In this document: positions 20,456 to 32,388 of the stretch, one piece after another
How the letters are laid out: each line of letters starts with the position of its first letter
How positions within the stretch are numbered: position 1 is the first letter of the stretch
Position numbers and translations under genes: made by a program
The notes under the pieces: generated by a model
The model's database searches: none
Seen by the model: only the letters and a program-made list of their open reading frames with translations
Told to the model about the DNA's origin: nothing
IMG/VR virus record: IMGVR_UViG_3300025382_000013
Location: 1 to 50,987 of that record
Source: a virus
Taxonomy: Duplodnaviria > Caudoviricetes
DNA length: 50,987 nucleotides
Strand: one strand, 5' to 3'

Positions 20456-20568
20456 TGTGGATAACTCTGTGGACAAGGTTATTCACAGGTTTATCCACTG
20501 TCAATCTCTCTTGACGAGGGGTACCGTCACCAAAACCATCGCCAAAAGTTATTCACAGGTCGTCCACA
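20456..20568. other. DnaA-box cluster, candidate replication origin
   Basis: TGTGGATAA 20456 (perfect, minus), TGTGGACAA 20468, TTATTCACA 20479, TTATCCACT 20491, TTATTCACA 20549, TCGTCCACA 20560. Located at the gene strand switch. Confidence 0.7.
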
Positions 20569-20659: not shown

Positions 20660-20738
20660 CAACCCTACAGCCGAAAGGGTCTTTGACAAGTTTGCCAAAG
20701 TGCGTTATAATAACGACTTAGCAACAAAGGAGCGTACA

Positions 20739-21002
20739 ATGTTTAACACACTAGCAAAAGCAAAACTAGTATACAATAAAAAAGTACAAGCGTATAAACT
20801 AGTAGTAGCGTTTAACGTACACACTACTACACGCGAGGACAAAAACGGTAATGAGAAAGTAGTACACTTGTTCCCAGTACAAAGCAAGTGTGCCTATGTT
20901 AGTGGGGACTTACTTAAAAGTAACTTAAAAAACGAGCTTGCTAATGCGTTAAAACACGCTAAAGCAACAGCTCGCACAGACAATATTGTATTTGTAAGCT
21001 AA
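20739..21002 (+). CDS. Early hypothetical protein
   Basis: Own promoter and RBS. Start reassigned to MFNTLA. Confidence 0.7.
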   Translation: MFNTLAKAKLVYNKKVQAYKLVVAFNVHTTTREDKNGNEKVVHLFPVQSKCAYVSGDLLKSNLKNELANALKHAKATARTDNIVFVS

Positions 21003-21081
21003 AGCATTAATACATAGCACACTTGCTCTTTTTGCCCGAGTGTGCTATAATTAGTTTTTTAAGCAGTACAAAGGAGCCAAC

Positions 21082-21345
21082 ATGTTACAATGCCCATTCA
21101 ACACACTGGACGACAATGCTAAATTTGCTTATGCTGTAAGCGAAACATACAAAGCAATAGCTAACAGCACTGACGCTGTAATTTACAGCCAAAGTAGCGA
21201 CGACGACACTATAGTGGACTTTATGCGCGACGCAGTTAGCAGTGACATTTACAACTACGTTATAAGTGACGCTTGCGCTTACGACCTGTTTATCGAATGC
21301 ATTTTTGCACTACACAACACAATGCAATTACCCGGAGCGCAGTAG
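21082..21345 (+). CDS. Early hypothetical protein
   Basis: Own promoter and RBS. Confidence 0.7.
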   Translation: MLQCPFNTLDDNAKFAYAVSETYKAIANSTDAVIYSQSSDDDTIVDFMRDAVSSDIYNYVISDACAYDLFIECIFALHNTMQLPGAQ

Positions 21346-21406
21346 GGTTATTTGACAAGTTAGCCAAACGGCAGTATAATAAACACTTAGCAACACAGGA
21401 GCGCAT

Positions 21407-21673
21407 ATGACACAAGCAATACAACTGGACGATAACTTAACACTAGTAATAAATGACATGACAGCTACTTACTACTACAATGGCGGGGAGTTTGTGTTTA
21501 CAGGGGAGCAAGCGTTTGGGGAGTGCTGGATTAACAATGTACACTACAATTACAACATTGACAGCAATGAAATAATGTATATTACTAACATGGACGGCGC
21601 TATTGCGTATGTAGCTAAAAATGCTTACAGCGAAGACGACATGTATGCGTTTATTAAAACTGTACTAAGTTAA
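21407..21673 (+). CDS. Early hypothetical protein
   Basis: Own promoter and RBS. Confidence 0.7.
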   Translation: MTQAIQLDDNLTLVINDMTATYYYNGGEFVFTGEQAFGECWINNVHYNYNIDSNEIMYITNMDGAIAYVAKNAYSEDDMYAFIKTVLS

Positions 21674-21752
21674 AGGGTTAATACATAGCACACTTGACAG
21701 TTTGGGTTGAGTGTGCTATAATTAATTTTTTAACACAGCACTAGGAGTGCAA

Positions 21753-21908
21753 ATGAAAGATACAATACTTGCTAAACTAGCGGAAGTGGAAGCTATGCTG
21801 TTAACTGCAACATGCGATGGGGTACAACTAGCGGAACTGGAGTGCTTTAACGAGTTAGAGAACGCAATGAGCACACTATTGCAAACAGTTGACTACTACG
21901 TGGATTAA
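21753..21908 (+). CDS. Early 51-aa acidic protein (not in ORF track)
   Basis: MKDTILAKLAEVEAMLL...QTVDYYVD. Own promoter and AGGAG. Confidence 0.65.
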   Translation: MKDTILAKLAEVEAMLLTATCDGVQLAELECFNELENAMSTLLQTVDYYVD

Positions 21909-21940
21909 TGTTATAATTGTTTTTTAATAGGAGCGAAACT

Positions 21941-22327
21941 ATGCAAACATACACAACACTACACACAAGCGGTGGCGGTTACTGGTCTGGCAAAGCTCGA
22001 GCAGTAGACATTACTAAGCTGGACTTGCAGTACTGTACACAAGAGAAAAATTTTGGCGAGCTGTGCGTGTACTTTAGCCCTGCTAGCTGGAATACAGCAG
22101 TAGACGGATTAATTTACTCAGACCCATTATTTTTACAAACACTACGCACATACCTGCAAACAATCGGGTTTACAGAAGGCGAAGCTAACGACGTGGACTA
22201 TAGCGAACAAGGTATGCAAACGGACGAGTATGTTAGCTTTGACGTTGCTAGTACTTTTATTGCAGGGCTAGAGCGTTTAGACCCTAGTACTGTAGAGCGT
22301 GTTTGGGCAGAGTGCTTAGATGTTTAA
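21941..22327 (+). CDS. Early hypothetical protein
   Basis: GGAGCGAA RBS. GLIY.D..F and YSEQGMQ...YVSFD motifs. Confidence 0.7.
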   Translation: MQTYTTLHTSGGGYWSGKARAVDITKLDLQYCTQEKNFGELCVYFSPASWNTAVDGLIYSDPLFLQTLRTYLQTIGFTEGEANDVDYSEQGMQTDEYVSFDVASTFIAGLERLDPSTVERVWAECLDV

Positions 22328-22544
22328 TAACGCAGTGCAGTGGGCCGGCACGGCCTGCTTCATGTGTATGTACACATTAATGTCGTTCTTCCCACAGCTC
22401 AACAGCTACAGCATCTTAGCTGGGTTTTGTGGGGGCTTGCTGTACATGATATGGAGTTTACGTGTGCGCAACTGGCCACAGACGCTGACTAACGTTGTGT
22501 CAATAACCATTTGCGCAATAGGGTTATACAAGTACTTTGCTTGA
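22320..22544 (+). CDS. Early small membrane protein
   Basis: Three hydrophobic segments. Confidence 0.6.
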   Translation: MFNNAVQWAGTACFMCMYTLMSFFPQLNSYSILAGFCGGLLYMIWSLRVRNWPQTLTNVVSITICAIGLYKYFA

Positions 22545-22596
22545 CAGCCCGCCCATTTGACAGTATAATTAACACATAGCAACAAAGGAGCACACA

Positions 22597-22821
22597 ATGT
22601 CAAAAGCACTAGTAAAACGCATTAACACTGCATTTGGGAAAATTTACGACATGGGAGACAGCGGGCTTGACTACTTAGACGGGCATAGTGTACTAAACGC
22701 TAACTTAATGCAACACTTTTATGACAACACACTTGACACACTCTCAAAAGACATGCTAGAGGCGCTGGCTGTACAGTTAGAGACAGTAGTAGAGGACGCA
22801 GAGTTTGACTTAGAAGCATAA
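22597..22821 (+). CDS. Early hypothetical protein
   Basis: Own promoter and RBS. Confidence 0.7.
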   Translation: MSKALVKRINTAFGKIYDMGDSGLDYLDGHSVLNANLMQHFYDNTLDTLSKDMLEALAVQLETVVEDAEFDLEA

Positions 22822-22924
22822 GCAGAGTGGTGTTGTAGAAATACAACACCACCTAGGTTCGGTTGACAACTCAACCCAAACTTGCTATAATACTAACATC
22901 AACAACACACAAGGAGCGAAACTT

Positions 22925-23134
22925 ATGTCAGGCATTTACGACGTTGTTCAAAACCCAATCCCAAAGACCGGATTGTTTGCAACCCCAGAGAGCTTGGACC
23001 AGCTGATGGAGTACTGCCAACGCTTTAATGGGCAAGAGCGCATTATTGCTATCACTGTAGCCACTATGGCCCTTAACTTGGCACACGAGCTGGTTGAGGA
23101 CCGGATCTTGTCTAAAGAAGTGTTTTGCGGTTGA
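22925..23134 (+). CDS. Early hypothetical protein
   Basis: Own promoter and RBS. Confidence 0.7.
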   Translation: MSGIYDVVQNPIPKTGLFATPESLDQLMEYCQRFNGQERIIAITVATMALNLAHELVEDRILSKEVFCG

Positions 23135-23188
23135 CAGTTTGGCTAGAAGTTGCTATAATTAACACTTAAACACATTAAGGAGCGAAAC

Positions 23189-23677
23189 ATGGGTACACGT
23201 TCAATGATTGCTATCCAAAACCCTTACAACAAAACTGTTCGTGCAGTTTATTGTCACTGGGATGGCTACTTGGAGCACAACGGTGCTATTCTGCAAAAGC
23301 ACTACAGCAACAGCCCTAAGGTCAATAACTTGATTGCACTGGGTGACATTAGCTCACTACGTAGTGAAATTGGTGAGAAGCATGCCTTTAGTCGACTTGA
23401 AACGCCAATGGACGACGAGGCTTACGACAAGCTCTACGGCAACATGACTACTTACTACGGGCGTGACAGAGGTGAGACTGGCACTGAGTTCAAAGTGTTT
23501 AAGACACTTGCTGAAGCTGAGGAGCACTATGGATGGAGTGACTACTTCTATTGCTTCAAGTACACCAAGTCAAGTGACTACACATTGGGTGAGTGGCACT
23601 ATAAGAAAGCAGGCGAGCGTTGGAAGAAACTTGCTCCAGCTATTCGTAAGCTCGACCCAAAAGAGTGCGCTGAATAA
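23189..23677 (+). CDS. Early conserved phage protein (MGTRS...YCHWDGY family)
   Basis: MGTRS.I, VYCHWDGY, LI.LGD.SSL, Y.RDRGE motifs. Confidence 0.75.
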   Translation: MGTRSMIAIQNPYNKTVRAVYCHWDGYLEHNGAILQKHYSNSPKVNNLIALGDISSLRSEIGEKHAFSRLETPMDDEAYDKLYGNMTTYYGRDRGETGTEFKVFKTLAEAEEHYGWSDYFYCFKYTKSSDYTLGEWHYKKAGERWKKLAPAIRKLDPKECAE

Positions 23678-23754
23678 CCCTACAACTAGAACGGGTATTG
23701 ACAACATACCCGTTCTATTGTATAATACACACATAGACAACAAAGGAGCGAGCG

Positions 23755-24090
23755 ATGGGATACTTTACAGATACAGCATTTGACAGCACATTGGACATGA
23801 TTGACGCTGTGAACGAAGTGGTTGAGCGTCATGTACGCAAGATGGAAAGCTGTAGCCCTACAGAGTTGGGCTTGGATGTACGCTGTGGTCCTGTGTACAT
23901 TGACAGGGATGAGGAAGTGATTGCTGTTACTCATTCCAGTGCTATTGACTACTATGGCGGGTTCGAGTACATTAAAGAAGGTGAAGGACGCATGGTCTGC
24001 GGAGACTATACATTCTTCAACACAGAGTCCAGTCGTGTGCAAGACTGCTTTGATCACTTGAACGAAGTGGATGAGGAAGAAGTTGAGTAA
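23755..24090 (+). CDS. Early acidic hypothetical protein
   Basis: Own promoter and RBS. ELGLD.RC, DYYGGFEY. Confidence 0.7.
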   Translation: MGYFTDTAFDSTLDMIDAVNEVVERHVRKMESCSPTELGLDVRCGPVYIDRDEEVIAVTHSSAIDYYGGFEYIKEGEGRMVCGDYTFFNTESSRVQDCFDHLNEVDEEEVE

Positions 24091-24158
24091 GTTGAAGGGT
24101 TATTGACAGTCTGCTCGTTTGGCGCTATAATAAAGACTTAGCAACAAAGGAGCAGACA

Positions 24159-24230
24159 ATGGAATGTACCTATTGCAGAAAGTGGCACTGGAAGGGATTT
24201 GAAGTTTGTAAAGACCGTCCAAAACAATAG
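24159..24230 (+). CDS. 23-aa Cys/His microprotein
   Basis: MECTYCRKWHWKGFEVCKDRPKQ. Dedicated promoter (24103) and AAGGAG RBS. Confidence 0.6.
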   Translation: MECTYCRKWHWKGFEVCKDRPKQ

Positions 24231-24269
24231 GTTATTGACAGGTTAGGGTCTATGTGCTATAATAAGCAC

Positions 24270-24650
24270 ATAGACAGTTAGGAAAGCATTAAAGGTTACC
24301 TACATCGCTAGGCGCCCAGGTAGAGGACAGTATCGACGGATACGCTTGAACTGGGGCATGAAACAGGGGCAACCCGGAGAAGCGGCGATAGTAAGTAGGC
24401 AGTAATGACGAAGGCGACTAGTCCAATAGACGGTATTGGCAGCCAGTCCGGAGTTCCTTTAGTACTTTCCTAACTGTAGGGTGCTGGCCTTAGGGCGGTA
24501 CTTAAACGACACAACTGTGCGCCTAATCTAACATCGCTGAGGGACAAGTGCGTTCCTGTGGGGCTAGCTATAGGCTAGCGATTAACAAGAGTCCCCACAA
24601 AACCTGCTAGTCGACCCGGGTGAGACTTCTCAAAACCCTCCCGGAACAAT
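24270..24650 (+). ncRNA. Candidate structured ncRNA (unknown class)
   Basis: Own TTGACA-N17-TATAAT promoter, no RBS and no ORF in the track. 22-bp closing stem 24274-24295/24456-24477 plus many internal hairpins. Confidence 0.65.
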
Positions 24651-24716
24651 TCGGTTGACGTAGAGCGAAATCTGCGTTATAATATAGACATATTAACACA
24701 CTAAGGAGCGAAACTT

Positions 24717-24956
24717 ATGCGTACTATTTCTACTAAAAACAACGGTAACATCTACGAGATGTCTATCACAGAAGCCATTGAGATTGTTCAGGCTTATCAA
24801 AAAGTCAACAAACTCCCCGGTCTACTAGAGACAGCACAAGAGATGCGAGCTAAGGCTTTGCTAGACGAACTGCCTACAATACAAAAGGTTGCTATTCGCA
24901 GATTCTTAAAAGACATGGCTCAATTGTTTGCTCCCCGTGAGGCAGAAACATTATGA
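24717..24956 (+). CDS. Early hypothetical protein
   Basis: Own promoter and RBS. Confidence 0.7.
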   Translation: MRTISTKNNGNIYEMSITEAIEIVQAYQKVNKLPGLLETAQEMRAKALLDELPTIQKVAIRRFLKDMAQLFAPREAETL

Positions 24957-25225
24957 CAGGCTTTGCAACAAAGAAGGCTATGGCGATTGCTAAACTAACA
25001 GGAGCAGGTATGAAAACAGTTAGAGTTGAAACATTGATTGCACAAGAACTTGAAGTGCCCGATAGTTGGGAGCGCGAGGATGTCTACGACTTCTTGGCCG
25101 AATACCAAAGTTTTCGCACAGCCTTCCAGGGTGTGAGCAATACAGAGCAGACAGCCCGCATCGTTGATTTGGGTGTGGTAACAGAAGAAGTAACTGAAAT
25201 GGGAGATGAAGCATATGACGACTGA
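24953..25225 (+). CDS. Early hypothetical protein
   Basis: Alternative start at 25010 after AGGAG. Confidence 0.6.
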   Translation: MTGFATKKAMAIAKLTGAGMKTVRVETLIAQELEVPDSWEREDVYDFLAEYQSFRTAFQGVSNTEQTARIVDLGVVTEEVTEMGDEAYDD

Positions 25226-25451
25226 ACGATATACACTGAGCGACGTTGCCTACGACATTGAGCAACTCTACATCGAAGGCTACAAGCCTATCTCAATTGC
25301 CGCTAGGCTTGAGATCCCCGTAGACATGGTCTACGATTGGCTAGAGTCTACCAACCTAGAGGATGAGGTGGATGCCCAGGATTGGGACGAGATTGAAGCT
25401 GATTCCGCTGATCCTTGGTCTGTGATCGAAGACCCTCACTTGATAGACTAA
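25206..25451 (+). CDS. Small acidic protein with HTH-like segment
   Basis: LY.EG.....IA.RL.IP...VY.W. Confidence 0.55.
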   Translation: MKHMTTERYTLSDVAYDIEQLYIEGYKPISIAARLEIPVDMVYDWLESTNLEDEVDAQDWDEIEADSADPWSVIEDPHLID

Positions 25452-25452
25452 C

Positions 25453-25695
25453 ATGAAGGGCCTTATTACCAACGAATGGGACAGGGACAACCTAGAGTTC
25501 CTGCTCAACACCAAGGGCGATGCGTTCAAGGCTTGGTTCGCCCAGGCCGACGAGGATGACAAGGCCTATGCCCAGGAACTGATGGATGCCTACAGCAGGG
25601 AGCTCAAACTCCGTGCAGAAGAGCTGGAGATTGAAGCCCGCCTAGACAATACCCAGGAAGCCCTCATGGTTATTGACAAGATTAGGAAACTCTAG
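25453..25695 (+). CDS. Early hypothetical protein
   Basis: DR.NL.FLL...W......DD..YA.EL. Confidence 0.65.
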   Translation: MKGLITNEWDRDNLEFLLNTKGDAFKAWFAQADEDDKAYAQELMDAYSRELKLRAEELEIEARLDNTQEALMVIDKIRKL

Positions 25696-25732
25696 TATAA
25701 TAACTACTTACACACAGCAAGGAGCGAACCTT

Positions 25733-25999
25733 ATGAACATATCAACTTTGGAAGCCTATGTGGCACAGAAGAACCAATGGACCCGCATCTTTAAGGGCAA
25801 AGAGCTCAGCCTGCTCAATGCTCGGGATCGCCAGCGTATCGCTGACATGATTGATGCAGACATGAGCCCTGAGAACCTTACCTGCGATGGCGAACTGCCA
25901 CGCGATGTGGTGCGTGACAAGATGAACCGTTTGGTTCGTTGTGCCGAGCAACTGCTTTCGATTGATCCTAGTGTAACCTTTTACGAAATGGGAGTTTAA
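25733..25999 (+). CDS. Early hypothetical protein
   Basis: GGAGCGAA RBS and SPENL.CDGE motif. Start reassigned. Confidence 0.7.
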   Translation: MNISTLEAYVAQKNQWTRIFKGKELSLLNARDRQRIADMIDADMSPENLTCDGELPRDVVRDKMNRLVRCAEQLLSIDPSVTFYEMGV

Positions 26000-26000
26000 T

Positions 26001-26582
26001 ATGCCTAATTGGTGCAATAACTATCTAGAACTAACACACGATGACCCTGAGATGATCGAGAGGGCCAAGAAGGCCTTTGTAGATGGTCGTTTGCTTGATG
26101 AGTTCGTGCCAGTGCCCAAGGATCTGCATATCGTAGCAGGCCGAGTGGGTTCAGATCTCGACGCAGAACAGATCAAACTGGAAGAGGATACCAAACGCAA
26201 CCTAGAGGTGCATGGCTATGCCAATTGGTATGACTTTGCAGTCAACGAATGGGGCACCAAGTGGGATGTGGGCGGTGATGATATGCTTACAGAAGATGGC
26301 CCTAATGCTATCCGTATGAGTTTTGACAGTGCATGGGCTCCGCCTATTGCCGCAATGGAGAAGTTCCAGGATCTAGGCTTTAGGGTCAAGCTCATCTATT
26401 GGGAATCGGGCATGTGCTTCTGCGGTCTCTTTGATGAGAATGGTGATGACTACTATGACTACACTGATATGTCAGCAGACGAGATAGCAGAGTCTATCAA
26501 CTCAGAGATTGACGAGTGCATGAACATCACTGAAAGCATCCGTGAATGGGAAGAAGACAACGCAGAAGACGCTGAAGAATAA
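26001..26582 (+). CDS. DUF1281/YubB ferredoxin-like family protein
   Basis: MPNWC.N, WY.....WGTKWD, F.SAW.PP, Y.E.G..FCG. Confidence 0.75.
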   Translation: MPNWCNNYLELTHDDPEMIERAKKAFVDGRLLDEFVPVPKDLHIVAGRVGSDLDAEQIKLEEDTKRNLEVHGYANWYDFAVNEWGTKWDVGGDDMLTEDGPNAIRMSFDSAWAPPIAAMEKFQDLGFRVKLIYWESGMCFCGLFDENGDDYYDYTDMSADEIAESINSEIDECMNITESIREWEEDNAEDAEE

Positions 26583-26640
26583 GAGTTGACAGGCTCTCCA
26601 AAAGCCTGTATAATATAACTTTAACAACGAGGAAACCGTT

Positions 26641-26781
26641 TTGAAAACAAACCGACAGCTCAATACCGAGCACGATGAACGACAGCAGGACAAGGTTAGG
26701 CCCAAACAGCCAGAATATAACTTTAAGCCTTTAGAAGAAGTAATTAGGGCTTGGAAGGCTATGGCCCATGAGCAGACTTGA
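26641..26781 (+). CDS. Possible 46-aa protein (TTG start)
   Basis: Promoter at 26586 and GAGG RBS. Overlaps next start. Confidence 0.4.
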   Translation: MKTNRQLNTEHDERQQDKVRPKQPEYNFKPLEEVIRAWKAMAHEQT

Positions 26782-27028
26782 ATTCTATAGCAGACCTTTA
26801 GTAGCTTTTGATGCAGGACTCAAAGAGCATCGCGAGATCTACTATAGGTTCGTCAAAGAACGCAGTTGGGGGCATAGTCCTTACAGATTTATCGTTCCTG
26901 AGGATCACGGCGATTTGATCACTATGATTCAGCGTAATTTGATTGACTACTATGTTAGGCGGGAATTTGGCAAGAGTTTTGAAGCTCCCCAACCAAAAAT
27001 TCGCCCAAAACAGAAGAAAAATGGTTGA
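26768..27028 (+). CDS. Hypothetical protein
   Basis: RP.V.FD....HR..Y..F.....W...P.RF. Confidence 0.65.
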   Translation: MSRLEFYSRPLVAFDAGLKEHREIYYRFVKERSWGHSPYRFIVPEDHGDLITMIQRNLIDYYVRREFGKSFEAPQPKIRPKQKKNG

Positions 27029-27110
27029 CAACTAACTAAAATAGTTGTACAATTAGAACATGAACAAGGCGTTCATACTTTTTAACTTTAACACACACAG
27101 AGGTAACAAA

Positions 27111-27452
27111 ATGGCTACAGATAAACTTTTCAAAGTTGCAGGTATTAGTAAATTGAATGGCGAGTACAAGGTTCGTTTCGCCAATGATATGATGCGTATC
27201 AAGGTGCTGGCTAAGTCAGGTCACGAAGACATCCGTTTGGCTGATCTCGAAGCTAGCTTGACCAAGTTGGATGCCGCTAAGGTTCTGCTTGGTTTAGACG
27301 AGTTTGCTGATTCAATTGCTCAGAGCACAATCACTGAGTACATTGAAGACAACACTCCTAAGGCTAAGGTCTCTAAGCCTGTTGCAAAAGCAACGAAGAC
27401 TCCGGTAGCGAAGACTACCAAAGCAGTTGAGAACGAAGACGCACCGTTCTAA
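27111..27452 (+). CDS. Hypothetical protein with Lys/Ala-rich tail
   Basis: GAGG RBS before MATDKL and KVRFAND motif. Confidence 0.7.
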   Translation: MATDKLFKVAGISKLNGEYKVRFANDMMRIKVLAKSGHEDIRLADLEASLTKLDAAKVLLGLDEFADSIAQSTITEYIEDNTPKAKVSKPVAKATKTPVAKTTKAVENEDAPF

Positions 27453-27469
27453 ACTCGGCGTGACAACCA

Positions 27470-27546
27470 GGGCCTATAGCTCAGTTGGTTAGAGCAGAGG
27501 ACTCATAATCCTTTGGTCCCTGGTTCGAGTCCAGGTGGGCCCACCA
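27470..27546 (+). tRNA. tRNA with CAT anticodon, most likely tRNA-Ile2 (lysidine)
   Basis: Acceptor GGGCCTA/TGGGCCC, D arm, GAGGA-CT-CAT-AA-TCCTT, GTTCGAG T-loop, encoded CCA. C4:G69 and C5:G68 pairs are TilS determinants. Confidence 0.9.
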
Positions 27547-27562
27547 ACTACTAAATACCTTC

Positions 27563-27823
27563 ATGAAAGATTACAAATTCAAGTTGGTACGTGAGCTGGA
27601 TCTTATTATTCCAGCTATGAGTGAACAAGAAGCCTGGATCGAAATAACCAAAGTCGATCCAGAGCTTATTGCTGACGGCTGGCAGATCACATTGATCAAC
27701 AGCAACGAATCAGAAGCATTATCCCCTACAGCGCCTGCACAGGCAGATTCTACCTTTGACGAGTTTGAAGGCTTCGAAGACTACTCCTTCCTAAACCCAT
27801 CAGGACCAGCCACTTTAGGTTGA
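27563..27823 (+). CDS. Hypothetical protein (late-promoter driven)
   Basis: TAAATA at 27552-27557, 5 nt before ATG. Confidence 0.55.
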   Translation: MKDYKFKLVRELDLIIPAMSEQEAWIEITKVDPELIADGWQITLINSNESEALSPTAPAQADSTFDEFEGFEDYSFLNPSGPATLG

Positions 27824-27986
27824 CAGAACCTAGAGGTTCTACTATAATCAAATAGTCGAACAGAGGGGGATGGACACCAAGGCTACCTGTTGTATTCATA
27901 CAACAAAATAGTTTGATCTTTTGGTTGACAAAGACCCCCGGCCTTGCTATAATACTAACATCAACAGCAAATAAGGAGCGAACCTA

Positions 27987-28343
27987 ATGAAGCTACACAT
28001 CACTACCCAGTACATGGAGAACTATGGCGCCCACGATTGGGATGGCCAAGGTGAGTGCCCTCAGTACTGGAAGTTCAAAGGCAGTGAGGACTTCTTCTAT
28101 CAGTTGGGTTCAGAAGTACCTAGCGATGAGCACCTAGCAGAGTTGGTAGAAGTCCTGCGCGGCCGCTTTGAATATGATCACGAAGGTGCCCGTAACTACA
28201 TGACAGGTTATGGTGTAGTGGCAGATGACTTCATGACTGAGTTCGAGCAGAGCCAGTTGGATTACGAAGGCCGTATCGCTTACCCAGCTGTGATGCTACA
28301 GCCCTTGGCGGAAGTTGAAGACAATTATTATTTTGGAGCTTGA
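27987..28343 (+). CDS. Early conserved phage protein
   Basis: TQY.ENYGAHDWDG.GECPQYWKFKG motif. Own promoter and RBS. Confidence 0.75.
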   Translation: MKLHITTQYMENYGAHDWDGQGECPQYWKFKGSEDFFYQLGSEVPSDEHLAELVEVLRGRFEYDHEGARNYMTGYGVVADDFMTEFEQSQLDYEGRIAYPAVMLQPLAEVEDNYYFGA

Positions 28344-28344
28344 T

Positions 28345-28596
28345 ATGTTATTAGAAGATCAATTTTGCCGTATAGAGTACAAAGGACAGGAGTATGACAG
28401 CCGTCATGGTGGCCCGTTTGATAGAGGCTCAGCAGACAGTTGGTATAGCCGTCCATTCAATCCTCACTTCTACAAGGGTGGAACCTACGAAGGTCCCCGT
28501 GTGGAATTGGCAGATATGACTGTAGAAGAGATCCTAGCTTACACCGCAGGCTATCACTGGAATGAGAAGTTCGGCGGGAAGAAAGATTACGATTAA
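28345..28596 (+). CDS. Early conserved phage protein
   Basis: RHGGPFDRG.ADS.Y.R...PH.Y motif. Start reassigned. Confidence 0.7.
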   Translation: MLLEDQFCRIEYKGQEYDSRHGGPFDRGSADSWYSRPFNPHFYKGGTYEGPRVELADMTVEEILAYTAGYHWNEKFGGKKDYD

Positions 28597-28675
28597 CCCT
28601 CCAAAGTGAATGGGATTTGACTGAGTGTCCAAAAGACAGTATAATTGATACATACAGACACAAAAGGAGCAGACA

Positions 28676-28879
28676 ATGAGAGAAGACACTTTAACCGTAG
28701 CAGACCTAATCGCAATCCTCAGCAAGGTAGATCCTACTTTGCCCGTGAAGATGGCTATGAATCAAGAGTACGAGTGTCCAGTGGAGGCAGACATGGTAGG
28801 TGTACGTGAATACGACGAAGGTCCTGTACTCTACATCAACGACGTCCTCAGCGACTACGAGGACGAGGATAACGGTTGA
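28676..28879 (+). CDS. Early hypothetical protein
   Basis: TV.DLI..L...DP..PV pattern. Own promoter. Confidence 0.7.
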   Translation: MREDTLTVADLIAILSKVDPTLPVKMAMNQEYECPVEADMVGVREYDEGPVLYINDVLSDYEDEDNG

Positions 28880-28935
28880 CGCCCAGCCCAAAAGGCGTTA
28901 TAATACTTACATCAACAGCAAATAAGGAGCGAAAA

Positions 28936-29145
28936 ATGACACAATTAAAAGACATGCAAGGTAAAGAGATCAAAGTAGGCGATCGTGTAGCAATGGTCAG
29001 CTATCACAATGCCGGTAGTCTTGTTATTGGGGTAGTTGAGAAACTAGGCACTGTTCGTGCTCAAGTTCGCCCTGTACAGGCCAGCTTCACTAACATCGTC
29101 CCTACAGTAGCCAGCATTGGCTCAACAGAGTTAATTAAACTCTAA
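28936..29145 (+). CDS. Early SH3/KOW-like small protein
   Basis: D..G.EI.VGDRV. Start reassigned after RBS. Confidence 0.65.
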   Translation: MTQLKDMQGKEIKVGDRVAMVSYHNAGSLVIGVVEKLGTVRAQVRPVQASFTNIVPTVASIGSTELIKL

Positions 29146-29207
29146 GGTTGACATACCCTCCAAAAGAGGGTATAATACTAACATCAACAGCAAACAAGGA
29201 GCGAACC

Positions 29208-29915
29208 ATGTTTAAGTTACTTTCTACAGCAAACCCTAAGATCCAAAAAGGTACTAAGATGGGCTACCTCAGCTTCATCCTGCACCTTGCACCAGCAGAC
29301 TTGAGTGGCAAAGAGACTTGCCCAAAGCGGACAGCTGGATGTACAGCGGCCTGTTTGAATACAGCAGGACGCGGCGGTATGTTCAAGCGAGGCGAGACGA
29401 CCAATATGATCCAAAAGGCTCGTATCCGCAAGACCAACTACTTCTTCAATGATCGCAGAGCCTTTATGATGGACTTGGTAGAAGACATCAGCAAGGCCAT
29501 CAAGTTCGCAGAGCGCAAAGGATTGACTCCAGTGTTTCGTTTGAATGGCACGAGCGATTTGAGCTGGGAGAAATACGAGTGCTATGATGTGGGCGCGGCC
29601 AATATCTTCGAAGCGTTCCCTAATGTACAGTTCTATGACTACACTAAGGTCTTAGGCCGTAAGGTCAAGCATATCCCTAACTATCACCTTACATTCAGCA
29701 AGGCAGACGGCAATGATGCTGATGTGGCTGAAGCATTAATGCAAGGCATGTCAGTGGTTGCTGTCTACGATAAGATTCCTGAAGGCGTTCCTAGTGCGGA
29801 TGAGACAGACTTGCGCTTCTTAGACCCTAAGGGCATTATGCTTGGTCTTAAGGCTAAGGGTCGTGCCAAAAAAGACTACAGCGGATTCGTAATTCGGTTG
29901 ACAGAGTCAGCTTAA
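29208..29915 (+). CDS. GP88-like conserved phage protein (Cys-rich, possibly Fe-S)
   Basis: CP..T.GC...CL..AGRG, RLNGTSD..W, QFYDYTK, NYHLTFS, D..DLRFLDP, LKAKG.A. Confidence 0.6.
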   Translation: MFKLLSTANPKIQKGTKMGYLSFILHLAPADLSGKETCPKRTAGCTAACLNTAGRGGMFKRGETTNMIQKARIRKTNYFFNDRRAFMMDLVEDISKAIKFAERKGLTPVFRLNGTSDLSWEKYECYDVGAANIFEAFPNVQFYDYTKVLGRKVKHIPNYHLTFSKADGNDADVAEALMQGMSVVAVYDKIPEGVPSADETDLRFLDPKGIMLGLKAKGRAKKDYSGFVIRLTESA

Positions 29916-29959
29916 TCAGATATAATACTAACATCAACAGCAAATAAGGAGCGAAACTT

Positions 29960-30145
29960 ATGAACTCAAAACTCTATGCATTCTGCGATAGCATCGTAGC
30001 AGGCGTTGGATTCTTTCTAGTGTTTGGCGTGTCAGGCGCATTGGACACGGCAACAGACAGCCAATTGTTCCCACTCACATTGATTGCCATCGCAGGCTTG
30101 GGCTTGTTCTTTGCAGGCATCAATGGCTTAACCACTCGTCGATAA
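29960..30145 (+). CDS. Early small membrane protein
   Basis: Two TM helices and own promoter. Confidence 0.65.
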   Translation: MNSKLYAFCDSIVAGVGFFLVFGVSGALDTATDSQLFPLTLIAIAGLGLFFAGINGLTTRR

Positions 30146-30154
30146 GGAGATATC

Positions 30155-30445
30155 ATGCTAACCATTAGAGAAGTCAATTCAGCCATCATGCTACAGACCT
30201 GGACGGATACGGAACTCCGTAGCATGATTGATGCAGTCAAATGGAACCGTGCTCAACTGGTCAACCAAGTCAAACGCTCAATCCGTCGGGGCGATAATGT
30301 AGAGTTCACCAGCTCAAAGACAGGACGTTTGACACGTGGCTTCGTCACAAAGATTGCTATCAAATACGTCACAGTTGATACGGGCATGGGCTTGTGGCGA
30401 GTGCCAGCCAATATGCTAGCCCTGGTTGACAAAGAGACGGCCTGA
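30155..30445 (+). CDS. Early SH3-like protein
   Basis: GD.V.F......G.V.KI..K...V......WRVP...L. AAGGAG RBS. Confidence 0.7.
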   Translation: MLTIREVNSAIMLQTWTDTELRSMIDAVKWNRAQLVNQVKRSIRRGDNVEFTSSKTGRLTRGFVTKIAIKYVTVDTGMGLWRVPANMLALVDKETA

Positions 30446-30485
30446 CTGTATAATTAAGACTTAAACAACACACAGGAGCGAACCT

Positions 30486-30680
30486 ATGCGTACACAAACT
30501 AACCGGCTAATCGACATGATGGACGAGGGCCTTATCAGTGCCCAATCCGTTGCAGAGATGGCCCTTGCTTACATGAGCGAAGATGATGTTGCAGACATGA
30601 TGCGAGCTAACGACATCCTGGACGAAGAGTCCGACCCAATGGATGACTTCAATTATGTGGGCAGTAGACATCATTATTGA
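30486..30680 (+). CDS. Early hypothetical protein
   Basis: YMSEDDV.DM...N and DDFNYVGSRHHY. Confidence 0.7.
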   Translation: MRTQTNRLIDMMDEGLISAQSVAEMALAYMSEDDVADMMRANDILDEESDPMDDFNYVGSRHHY

Positions 30681-30743
30681 GTTGACACAAGGCCCAAACG
30701 GCAGTATAATTACTACTTCAACAGCAAATAAGGAGCGATACTT

Positions 30744-31067
30744 ATGATTACAGCAGAACAGATCCGTGCAGGTAAGGTGCTAGCAGAGCAAGCAGGCCGC
30801 GCAGAGTACGCCAAGTGGGGCGGTGACCGTGGAGCTTGTGGCTTTGCTTGGGTAGAGGTCTACGTGGATCGTACCAACTCAAAGCAGGCCAAAGAGCTGA
30901 TTGCCGCAGGCTTCCGCAAGGACTACAAACCCAAATGCTTGAGCATGTGGGATCCAGCTGGCTTGCCCGTGCAGAACATCGACATCAAAGAAGCTGGCGC
31001 CTATGCTTACGCCAACTACCTCTCTGCTTTGGGCTTGAAGGCCTACGCAGGTAGCAGACTAGACTAA
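30744..31067 (+). CDS. Early conserved phage protein
   Basis: CGFAWV, Q....KEA.A.AYA..L...G..AY..SRLD. Confidence 0.7.
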   Translation: MITAEQIRAGKVLAEQAGRAEYAKWGGDRGACGFAWVEVYVDRTNSKQAKELIAAGFRKDYKPKCLSMWDPAGLPVQNIDIKEAGAYAYANYLSALGLKAYAGSRLD

Positions 31068-31134
31068 CCAATTCAAGTGACACGGAGTCAACTCCGTGTT
31101 ATAATTAATACTCACAACAGATACAGGAGCGTAT

Positions 31135-32025
31135 ATGGCAAAGGTTGTTACTAGTAAGATGCTTATGGCACTACAAAGCGAAACTAAATCATTGGAAGTG
31201 GACAAGACAGCGATCAAGGCCAAAGAGCTGGCTTTGAAAAGCGAAACAGATGAGCAGATCTTGGATCGCTTGCGTGAACGCTTTGAGATCTTAGACGACA
31301 TGACTCGTGCGGTCAAGAAGGGCGATGTTAAGGCCATGATCGTAACTGGCCCTCCAGGTGTTGGCAAATCCTTTGGTGTTGAAAAGGTCTTGAGCAAGCA
31401 TGATGTGTTCGCTACTGTAGCACAGGATGAAAAGCTCAAGAAGTACGAAGTGGTCAAGGGTGCTATGAGTGCCATTGGCTTGTACTCAAAGCTCTATCAC
31501 TTCAGTGACAAGAAGAATGTTCTAGTGTTTGACGACTGTGACAGTATCCTATTGGACGACTTGAGCTTGAACATTCTCAAAGCCGCATTGGATACCAGCA
31601 AGAAACGTACTATCAATTGGAACACTGATAGTTCATTGTTGCGCCGCGAAGGCGTGCCTGACTCATTTGAATTCAAAGGCGGTGCTATCTTTATTACCAA
31701 CATCAAGTTCGATCACGTTAAGAGCAAGAAGCTTAAGGATCACTTGGAAGCATTGGAAAGCCGTTGTCACTACTTGGACTTGACTATTGATACAGAGCGT
31801 GAGAAGCTCCTACGTATACAGCAAGTGGTCATGGAGTGTGGCATGCTGGACAGCTATGAGCTAGAGGACTATCAAAAGCAGGAAGTGGTAGACTTTGTAG
31901 CAGACAACACAGCACGTCTACGTGAGCTCAGCTTGCGTACAGTACTTAAGGTAGCGGACCTGCGTGTTAGTATGCCAGCCAAGTGGCGGGCTGTAGCTGC
32001 CATGACCTGTATGCGCAACAGCTAA
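31135..32025 (+). CDS. AAA+ P-loop ATPase
   Basis: Walker A GPPGVGKS, Walker B LVFDDCD, FITN, AL.SR arginine finger. Confidence 0.85.
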   Translation: MAKVVTSKMLMALQSETKSLEVDKTAIKAKELALKSETDEQILDRLRERFEILDDMTRAVKKGDVKAMIVTGPPGVGKSFGVEKVLSKHDVFATVAQDEKLKKYEVVKGAMSAIGLYSKLYHFSDKKNVLVFDDCDSILLDDLSLNILKAALDTSKKRTINWNTDSSLLRREGVPDSFEFKGGAIFITNIKFDHVKSKKLKDHLEALESRCHYLDLTIDTEREKLLRIQQVVMECGMLDSYELEDYQKQEVVDFVADNTARLRELSLRTVLKVADLRVSMPAKWRAVAAMTCMRNS

Positions 32026-32038
32026 CAGCAACAGTATA

Positions 32039-32194
32039 GGGTAGGGTACAGCAGATAGTAACCCACCCAGAGACTAGCCAACGATTCGCTCCCGGCAACT
32101 AGTCTCACTTAAAAGGTTCCGTAAGCCCGATTCGCTCCCGGCAGAACCTTTTGTGATCCTCAGGGGACTTACATGTTCTCTGGGGATTTTTTTT
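32039..32194 (+). ncRNA. Candidate anti-RBS small RNA (two hairpins with identical UUCGCUCC loops plus terminator)
   Basis: 16-nt repeat CGATTCGCTCCCGGCA at 32082 and 32128, in stems GAGACTAG/CTAGTCTC and AAAAGGTTC/GAACCTTTT. Confidence 0.6.
32156..32194 (+). terminator. Rho-independent terminator ending the early island
   Basis: ATCCTCAGGGGA/TTCTCTGGGGAT stem with G-U pairs on the plus strand, then a T run. Confidence 0.85.
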
Positions 32195-32388
32195 CTTCGG
32201 GGGACATGTAAAAGGAAAAAGATTTTGCGAGAGGGTGGGAGGCATGCAATTTATATCGCTGTTGTAAATCTGCAACAGCGCATGGGTACCGAACTATTTT
32301 CAGGGGTCTAAAAGCTCAAGTACTTCTTTATAATTTTTTACGCGGTAGAAATTTTGATCCCCTAGGACCCATTTGGCTATATACTAGT

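Follow-up and report, generated by a model that had tools for sequence, protein, structure and literature searches.

To our knowledge, it is chiefly through two T4 protein factors, RegB and RegA, that the shutdown of early protein synthesis in lytic phages is understood. Among RNA regulators, the antisense RNA C4 is processed from a precursor by RNase P, and RsaE pairs with Shine-Dalgarno sites through a C-rich seed. In the cluster K mycobacteriophages, a sequence termed SAS extends the Shine-Dalgarno sequence before many non-structural genes in a way that is not explained by 16S pairing, and four of these phages have one reversed copy per genome (PMC3203893). The accessible part of that paper leaves open whether SAS is read by an RNA or a protein, and proposes no antisense hairpin. 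RegB of T4 is described as a protein nuclease with the motif GGAGRAYARAA (PMC3014915).

The locus analysed here lies on a 50,987-base fragment of an uncultured phage record, 14% complete, which we call the window. Early genes on its plus strand share a tag, GGAGCG(AA), at their ribosome sites, and behind the last of these genes, which encodes an ATPase, stands an element of hairpins whose loops are complementary to the tag. The tag resembles SAS in being a conserved Shine-Dalgarno extension before many starts, in one orientation and not explained by 16S pairing. It differs in sequence, phage family and host group, and in length, SAS having 13 letters (GGGATAGGAGCCC) against 6-8 here; the window tags do not match the consensus GGGATAGGAGCCC but read GGAGCG(AA), in A/C-rich leaders. 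In the cluster K phage Adephagia (JF704105), we found 16 forward SAS copies at starts and a long hairpin whose loop contains the single reversed copy (about 58670-58720, between genes 92 and 93). This hairpin-loop layout was also found in Anaya, Validus and LilPharaoh, with the motif at the hairpin tip in 3/5 stretches fetched (L650-L654), and the Adephagia hairpin stretch had matches in 140 mycobacteriophage records.

The element shares with the cuckoo/CcsR sRNAs of Alphaproteobacteria a set of two to four neighbouring hairpins in which the stems vary and the C-rich loop stays the same, placed downstream of a gene and before a terminator (PMC4615179). Unlike the element, these RNAs are bacterial, and their loop, CCUCCUCCC, is in the accessible description a generic anti-Shine-Dalgarno sequence with no private target tag (PMC4615179). 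The loops of the element read AUUCGCUCC or GCCCUC rather than CCUCCUCCC, and the cuckoo/CcsR model of Rfam gave no match to it at gathering score or at E up to 10. The likeness to C4 of P1/P7 lies in a phage RNA that is cut from a longer transcript and whose loops pair with messages, one of them over a ribosome site, with loop and target differing together between phages (PMC5320573). As described there, C4 carries two loops that differ from each other and targets a single operon of a temperate phage, whereas the loops of the element are identical and correspond to 10-20 or more dispersed starts; the C4 antisense RNA model, RF01695, did not match the element at gathering score or at E up to 10.

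RegB is comparable in that it inactivates early messages as a class, through an extended GGAG motif at ribosome sites (PMC3014915). In contrast, the proposed reader here is an RNA, the motif is GGAGCG, with C at position 5 in 0.94 of leaders, unlike the RegB site, and some late-type genes are tagged. Profile searches for RegB and RegA matched 0/5 relatives, and control profiles were equally silent. In S. aureus, the UCCC loops of RNAIII act as unpaired C-rich seeds and prevent translation by pairing with Shine-Dalgarno sites (PMC4615179), and in icaR a 3'UTR is used (PMC3868564). The element too has an unpaired C-rich seed complementary to the Shine-Dalgarno regions of its targets, as in trans-acting anti-RBS sRNAs of the RNAIII/RsaE type. 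However, RNAIII and icaR are bacterial and pair with generic Shine-Dalgarno sites, icaR acts on its own message, and the accessible accounts give neither a co-evolving private address (PMC4615179, PMC3868564). Judged from its sequence, the element appears to work like C4 and the loop-seed RNAs of the cuckoo/RNAIII type and to do the job of RegB, yet to belong to none of these families. Its motif was absent from the part searched of the supplement to a viral structured-RNA catalogue (PMC10690425), and a tag-and-loop system was not found described in the literature searched, mostly outside subscription papers.

The minus strand of the window carries T4-like replication genes. The plus-strand gene block 20683-32025 has 22 plus-strand sigma70-type promoter sites, each with 11-12 of 12 consensus matches, and its promoter-leader cassettes are repeats of one another (Table 1). 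The label "early" derives from these host-type promoters, and the label "late" rests on the word TAAATA, which we take to be a T4-type late promoter. Relatives of the window phage reach up to 345-357 kb. The nearest cultured relative of the ATPase is that of Pseudomonas phage PA5oct (46%); no loop was seen after its gene, where another gene starts at most 44 letters on. A search of prokaryote genomes returned no relative of the ATPase and therefore no clue to the host, and none of 50,697 cultured phage records matched the element in blastn. Just upstream of the first early promoter, at 20459-20560, words similar to DnaA boxes are clustered, a possible origin. Palindromes occupy the spacers of early promoters at 24655-24683, 28876-28904, 29148-29176 and 31077-31105, and resemble the PeSL cassettes of T4-type phages.

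Table 1. Positions of the tags, the early block and the hairpin element in the window.
Feature	Position	Strand	Evidence
Early block, repeated sigma70-type promoter and A/C-rich leader cassettes	20683..31134	+	promoter and repeat searches
Full tags GGAGCGAA	21930..21937, 22913..22920, 23179..23186, 24705..24712, 25721..25728	+	motif search
Full tags GGAGCGAA	27975..27982, 28926..28933, 29198..29205, 29948..29955, 30475..30482	+	motif search
Partial tag GGAGCGTA	20729..20736	+	motif search
Further partial tags	21073, 21398, 22587, 23745, 24150, 25001, 28335, 28666, 30732, 31126	+	motif search
AAA+ ATPase gene (phrog_1250), last early gene	31135..32025	+	promoter 31077-31105
3' untranslated tail of ATPase message, candidate regulatory RNA, four hairpins	32026..32194	+	fold z = -3.97
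Hairpin 0, without tag loop, varies among relatives	32039..32068	+	fold
Hairpin 1, stem GAGACTAG/CTAGTCTC, loop AUUCGCUCC at 32084-32092	32070..32106	+	fold, covariation
Hairpin 2, stem AAAAGGTTC/GAACCTTTT, loop AUUCGCUCC at 32130-32138	32111..32152	+	fold, covariation
Intrinsic-terminator-like hairpin 32155-32188 with U tail, end of early block	32155..32194	+	terminator search

The original prediction had described the loop as the exact reverse complement of an 8-mer that forms the ribosome site of ten early genes, with GGAGC(G) at about nine further starts. The loop AUUCGCUCC is indeed complementary to GGAGCGAA, and ten plus-strand copies of GGAGCGAA lie exactly where they were predicted, each 10-12 letters upstream of an ATG. 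Altogether the window has 12 matches to the tag, the remaining two being the loops, against 0.74 expected, and 0/100 shuffles reached 12. The further early starts with GGAGC number eleven, five of them with GGAGCG. The ATPase's own leader, with GGAGCGTA at 31126, matches the loop over 6 letters. A loop match of at least 6 letters was reached by 15/19 early promoter-linked leaders and by 0/52 minus-strand ORFs of the window.

An extension of the Shine-Dalgarno sequence by CGAA had been proposed as the address. In 214 GGAG-anchored leaders with G-poor surroundings, C stands at position 5 in 0.94 and G at position 6 in 0.84, which upholds the CG part; the AA part adds little, as A at positions 7-8 (0.74, 0.71) is only slightly above the A-rich upstream background (0.46-0.68). 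The address is mainly GGAG-CG. CG follows GGAG in only 2/32 minus-strand gene leaders of relatives. The distance from tag to start codon is tighter (sd 1.4, 1.7) than that from tag to promoter (sd 3.8, 5.2), and nearly all tags have the same orientation (191 plus vs 9 minus; 112 vs 5). The closer spacing to the start codon and the prevailing orientation fit a signal that acts at the level of the message. In three genomes (L465, L471, L481), a GC-rich AGCG-repeat stretch contains a conserved copy of GGAGCGAA that does not serve as a ribosome site.

The twin hairpins and the plus-strand terminator of the original prediction were recovered with their coordinates and stems, the fold having a z of -3.97 and the terminator hairpin a T tail. 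The 16-mer that the hairpins were said to share, CGATTCGCTCCCGGCA, occurs at 32082 and 32128 only (2 matches with <=3 mismatches vs 0.15 expected). The apical loop itself has 9 letters, AUUCGCUCC, and is shut by a short closing stem that changes with compensation in relatives (CCG/CGG, GTG/CAC, GCG/CGC, CTG/CAG, CGG/CCG). Both loops are predicted to be open, with an unpaired probability of 0.85 and 0.83 vs 0.24 for other G/C and a predicted opening cost of 0.2 and 1.9 kcal/mol. In many relatives hairpin 2 doubles as the terminator. At gathering score, the single Rfam match in the window was a tRNA; with E up to 10, NsiR1 and mir-920 were the sole matches to the element, both sub-threshold. A promoter for a separate RNA, sigma70-type or TAAATA, was found in 0/42 and 0/30 relatives within the last 400 letters of the ATPase gene. 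Because no promoter of its own was found, the element RNA would be the 3'UTR or a processed piece of it; this agrees with the predicted 3' origin of the sRNA and speaks against its transcription as a separate RNA. Many relatives with GGAGCG tags (lineage A) also share, just past the terminator (32207-32285 in the window), a G-rich word and a hairpin of the form TTGTTG...CAACAGCGC.

Next, we examined how the element is conserved. The loop lies directly behind the ATPase stop in 60/69 loci with ATPase relatives, and it is unchanged across relatives down to about 65% ATPase identity. It is missing there in 9/69 loci (53-70% identity), and in one of these nine, L061, it sits behind two other genes instead. 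In other lineages the element is found behind other genes as well, for example a winged-helix gene (PF14090). After entries with no recognised T run and near-copies were dropped, the tail set held 43/66 entries for lineage A and 30/50 for lineage B, which is described below; 38/43 lineage-A tails have two loops and 5/43 have one. A scan for the 15-letter hairpin tip gave at least 122 analysable loci; among the matches listed, a T run lay within 80 letters in 78/122 and an ATPase relative in the fetched DNA in 60/122, and some were plainly chance matches in unrelated DNA. A gapped pattern of the two loop 8-mers found 121 stretches in viral contigs.

The stems change with compensation around the fixed loops. 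In 14 hand-picked tails of the window's architecture, which are related sequences, 92% of cells pair and 14/27 pairs change on both sides, with a covariation score of 0.425 vs 0.169 for shuffled and 0.06-0.09 for slid alignments. In the stem of hairpin 1, 6/6 pairs change on both sides in the 14 sequences, and 100% are paired. In the motif-anchored stems, 19 distinct arm pairs contained 108 Watson-Crick, 6 G-U and 0 A-C cells; the p of 0.03 for G-U vs A-C is optimistic because the sequences are related. Two strand-symmetric unanchored G-U tests showed no clear strand preference (22 vs 18 and 10 vs 10; 79 vs 93 and 55 vs 46), three unanchored apical-pair counts were likewise flat, and the minus strand folds as stably as the plus strand in 27/43 lineage-A tails. 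A U tail follows the element in both lineages, and a plus-strand promoter rather than a converging gene lies downstream of it in 28/29 lineage-B tails (promoter in 4/43 in lineage A). Terminator polarity and the downstream plus-strand promoter speak for the plus strand. The loops are supported as a selected plus-strand RNA structure.

Covariation of loop and tag in relatives had been set beforehand as a test of the original prediction, and it was observed in a second lineage. The locus L063 has GAGGGC leaders together with GCCCUC loops, and a search with its ATPase revealed a whole lineage of this kind (lineage B), with GAGGGC leaders and 1-4 GCCCUC/U loops. In 143 lineage-B leaders, GAGG is followed by G in 0.92 and C in 0.85. 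For the comparison, 32 loci of lineage A and 21 of lineage B were picked from the tree. A match of at least 6 letters to the loop of the own lineage was found in 259/370 (A) and 147/199 (B) leaders, while such a match to the loop of the other lineage was found in 2/370 (A) and 5/199 (B). The sister group L361-L392, except L363, has neither tag nor element behind the ATPase.

Leaders and loops were tabulated for 88 representatives with <90% identity, taken from 216 loci, by a conservative loop finder that missed loops visible by eye, including one of the window's. Genomes with A leaders had loop A in 26 cases, A+B in 1, C in 1 and none in 4; those with B leaders had loop B in 17 and none in 3; those with C leaders (mostly GGAGCA) had loop A in 5, A+C in 1, C in 1 and none in 10; those with no leader type had loop A in 1, B in 1 and none in 17. 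No A-leader genome had only B loops, and no B-leader genome had A loops. On a quick tree, lineage B requires a single change, on a branch with support 99 that includes 8 unlabelled rows as well, and the A/B switch therefore counts as one event. This switch rewrote several loops and many leaders per genome. Separately, the locus L318 has 3 GGAGCG leaders next to GCCCUC loops, and L061 has a GCCCUC-like loop alongside A loops.

The third tag type, GGAGCA, fits poorly. The conservative loop finder saw no loop in 10 of its 17 representatives; UGCUCC loops were assigned to 2 and CGCUCC loops to 6, with one representative counted under both. By eye, UUGCUCC loops were seen in L405, L436, L439 and L060, while CGCUCC is kept in L428, L438, L418, L421, L423, L412, L406, L404 and L218; only the five-letter core always matches. 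In single-loop and GGAGCA lineages, a 90-aa winged-helix gene (PF14090) precedes the element (L413 9404-9676, L418 4045-4314, L061 1930-2322), and a second conserved hairpin, with loop GTAGTG, often stands alongside it.

The tag is also found outside the early block. Five larger lineage-A records have 22 GGAGCGAA sites beyond it, 12 at ATG starts and 10 elsewhere, and 9 of the 12 ATG-linked sites lie within 50 letters behind TAAATA. The genes tagged there encode holin-like (PF11351), DUF4337, CsgF-like, curlin-repeat and other membrane or exported proteins. Some far-off late-type genes carry the tag as a full 15-letter complement of the hairpin tip; among the matches listed in the tip scan, ten loci have this full complement at a gene start. 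GGAGCG was present in 30/56 distinct holin-like leaders vs 11/60 GGAG-bearing leaders of neighbouring genes, and in 6/64 distinct CsgF-like leaders (6/28 among close ones). The CsgF-like gene has GGAGCGAA in lineage A vs GAGGGCAC in the lineage-B record G006, where this gene carries GGAGGGCACG, its neighbour AGAGGGCAAT and the holin-like gene GGAGGGAAC, a partial fit only. Starts with GGAGCG linked to TAAATA occurred in 2/2 A and 0/3 B records, and those with GAGGGC in 3/3 B and 1/2 A records. One TAAATA-linked GAGGGC start was noted at G002:213864, and in L477, L483 and L487 the CsgF-like and curlin-repeat genes are clustered, several of them tagged.

An early-to-late switch acting on the early regulon had been predicted. 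Most early genes are tagged, as this would have it, but so are late-type holin-like, CsgF-like, DUF4337 and membrane or exported genes. A pure early-off, late-on switch is too narrow because late-type genes are also tagged, and we consider it rather unlikely. Pairing between loop and tag, by comparison, is very probable from the sequences. Its predicted strength is -9.5 to -12.4 kcal/mol for matches of 6-8 letters, against opening costs of 1-4.5; set against an assumed 16S core (-7 kcal/mol), loop pairing was predicted to be stronger, at -10 to -13 kcal/mol. Pairing by itself does not reveal whether messages are helped or repressed. Repression is the simplest assumption because the pairing covers the Shine-Dalgarno core, and RNAIII, C4 and icaR suggest it by analogy. 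Action in trans is favoured because the ATPase's own leader is rarely a full match (8 letters in only 8/39 leaders), because the element moves between genes, and because far-away late-type genes carry the tag. Repression in trans is, in our judgement, probable.

We lean towards a promoter-less 3'UTR that would act as an antisense brake on the tagged regulon, mainly in trans. The tail of the last early message would be produced when transcription from early promoters continues as far as the terminator at 32155-32194. Being fully structured, it may outlast the coding part and build up in step with total early transcription. Its fixed loops would pair with ribosome sites tagged by GGAG-CG-AA and block ribosome binding. 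The result would be a dose-coupled brake, with short, strongly promoted early messages damped by degrees, according to matches of 5 to 8 letters, and with late-type messages of membrane and holin-like genes that carry the tag held back until they outnumber the RNA. Base pairing would take over the job of T4 RegB, which cuts GGAG sites. Duplexes of 6-8 pairs are short, which counts against this reading, and cassette duplication could partly explain the sharing of leaders. Overall, a real and selected RNA-RNA address system appears well supported.

Several other explanations were weighed against this antisense brake. The loops might pair with the tags and help the messages, as a shield from a GGAG-cutting or other nuclease or as a ribosome adaptor. 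Complementarity and covariation would be the same, and the tagged leaders are short, open and behind near-perfect promoters, as expected for highly expressed genes. The lineage-A loop even aligns at every letter with the assumed 16S 3' end, but the lineage-B loop does not keep this register, the pairing covers the Shine-Dalgarno core so that a bound RNA would compete with 16S, and the loop-seed RNAs in the accessible descriptions repress (PMC4615179, PMC5320573, PMC3868564). A helping role is thus unlikely. It is also quite improbable that a protein recognises the tag, either in the message or as a dsDNA operator, with the hairpins as decoys or sites in minus-strand RNA or DNA. The loops of such minus-strand hairpins would read GGAGCGAAU, like those of small hairpins in some late leaders, two G-U tests showed no clear strand preference, and a winged-helix gene lies upstream of the element in several lineages; yet the anchored stems have 6 G-U vs 0 A-C, terminator polarity is plus in both lineages with no converging transcription in lineage B (28/29), and the one-directional tag is spaced from the start codon and not from the promoter.

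If each early message only folded its own 3' tail onto its own ribosome site, as icaR does, no separate promoter would be needed, and none was found for the RNA; nor was a terminator-like plus-strand site found between 23104 and 32155, so many early messages may carry the loops. However, distant late-type tagged genes are out of reach in cis, the nearest leader is usually not the best match (8/39), and 2-4 loops per tail suggest many partners, which makes a purely cis role very unlikely. The RNA might instead be no lytic timer but a silencer, like C4 of P1, serving a dormant or carrier state or acting against superinfecting relatives with the same tag. Relatives with as little as about 65% ATPase identity have an identical loop, so the RNA of one phage would suit the messages of another, and early and holin-like genes are both among the targets. 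A silencer of this kind is nevertheless highly unlikely, as the RNA depends on the same early promoters that it would silence. The tag could, lastly, be the preferred Shine-Dalgarno sequence of a host with an unusual 16S tail, spread by duplication of the promoter-leader cassettes, which are repeats, with an incidental loop match. Other genes of the same phages follow GGAG with other letters (CG in 2/32 leaders; 0/52 window ORFs reach 6 letters), 0/120 of the genome matches listed for a loop-like 16S end were in a 16S context, and chance does not explain the joint switch, which largely refutes this idea and leaves it barely credible.

If the antisense brake is real, an RNA reader for a phage-private address at dozens of the phage's own ribosome sites would be a different, reprogrammable solution, with a 6-8 letter tag/loop pair that has already been swapped once in evolution. 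The two lineages are a natural pair of orthogonal tag-loop sets. A wider proposal, to which we give somewhat less than an even chance, is a barcoded translational regulon of a large phage group. Early and lysis or membrane genes would share a private address, and a multi-loop 3'UTR RNA would read it, count early transcription, stop early proteins and set a threshold for holin-like genes. The same design might have arisen independently in cluster K, where it would explain SAS. The cluster K layout offers a testable answer, in a culturable phage with a laboratory host, to the question of the SAS reader left open in the accessible part of PMC3203893.

Two further stretches of the early block were noted. 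A single tRNA gene (27470-27543) lies within it behind a 130-aa gene (27060-27452), and a look-alike of the latter in L061 has a tag loop behind it in place of the tRNA. On the plus strand, 24269-24650 comprises about 380 letters with no long ORF, is heavily folded and has its own promoter (24235-24263). This stretch matched no Rfam family; it has blastn matches in 23 fetched loci and consists of two separable parts, and in L032, L040 and L046 a tag-loop hairpin directly precedes the second part.
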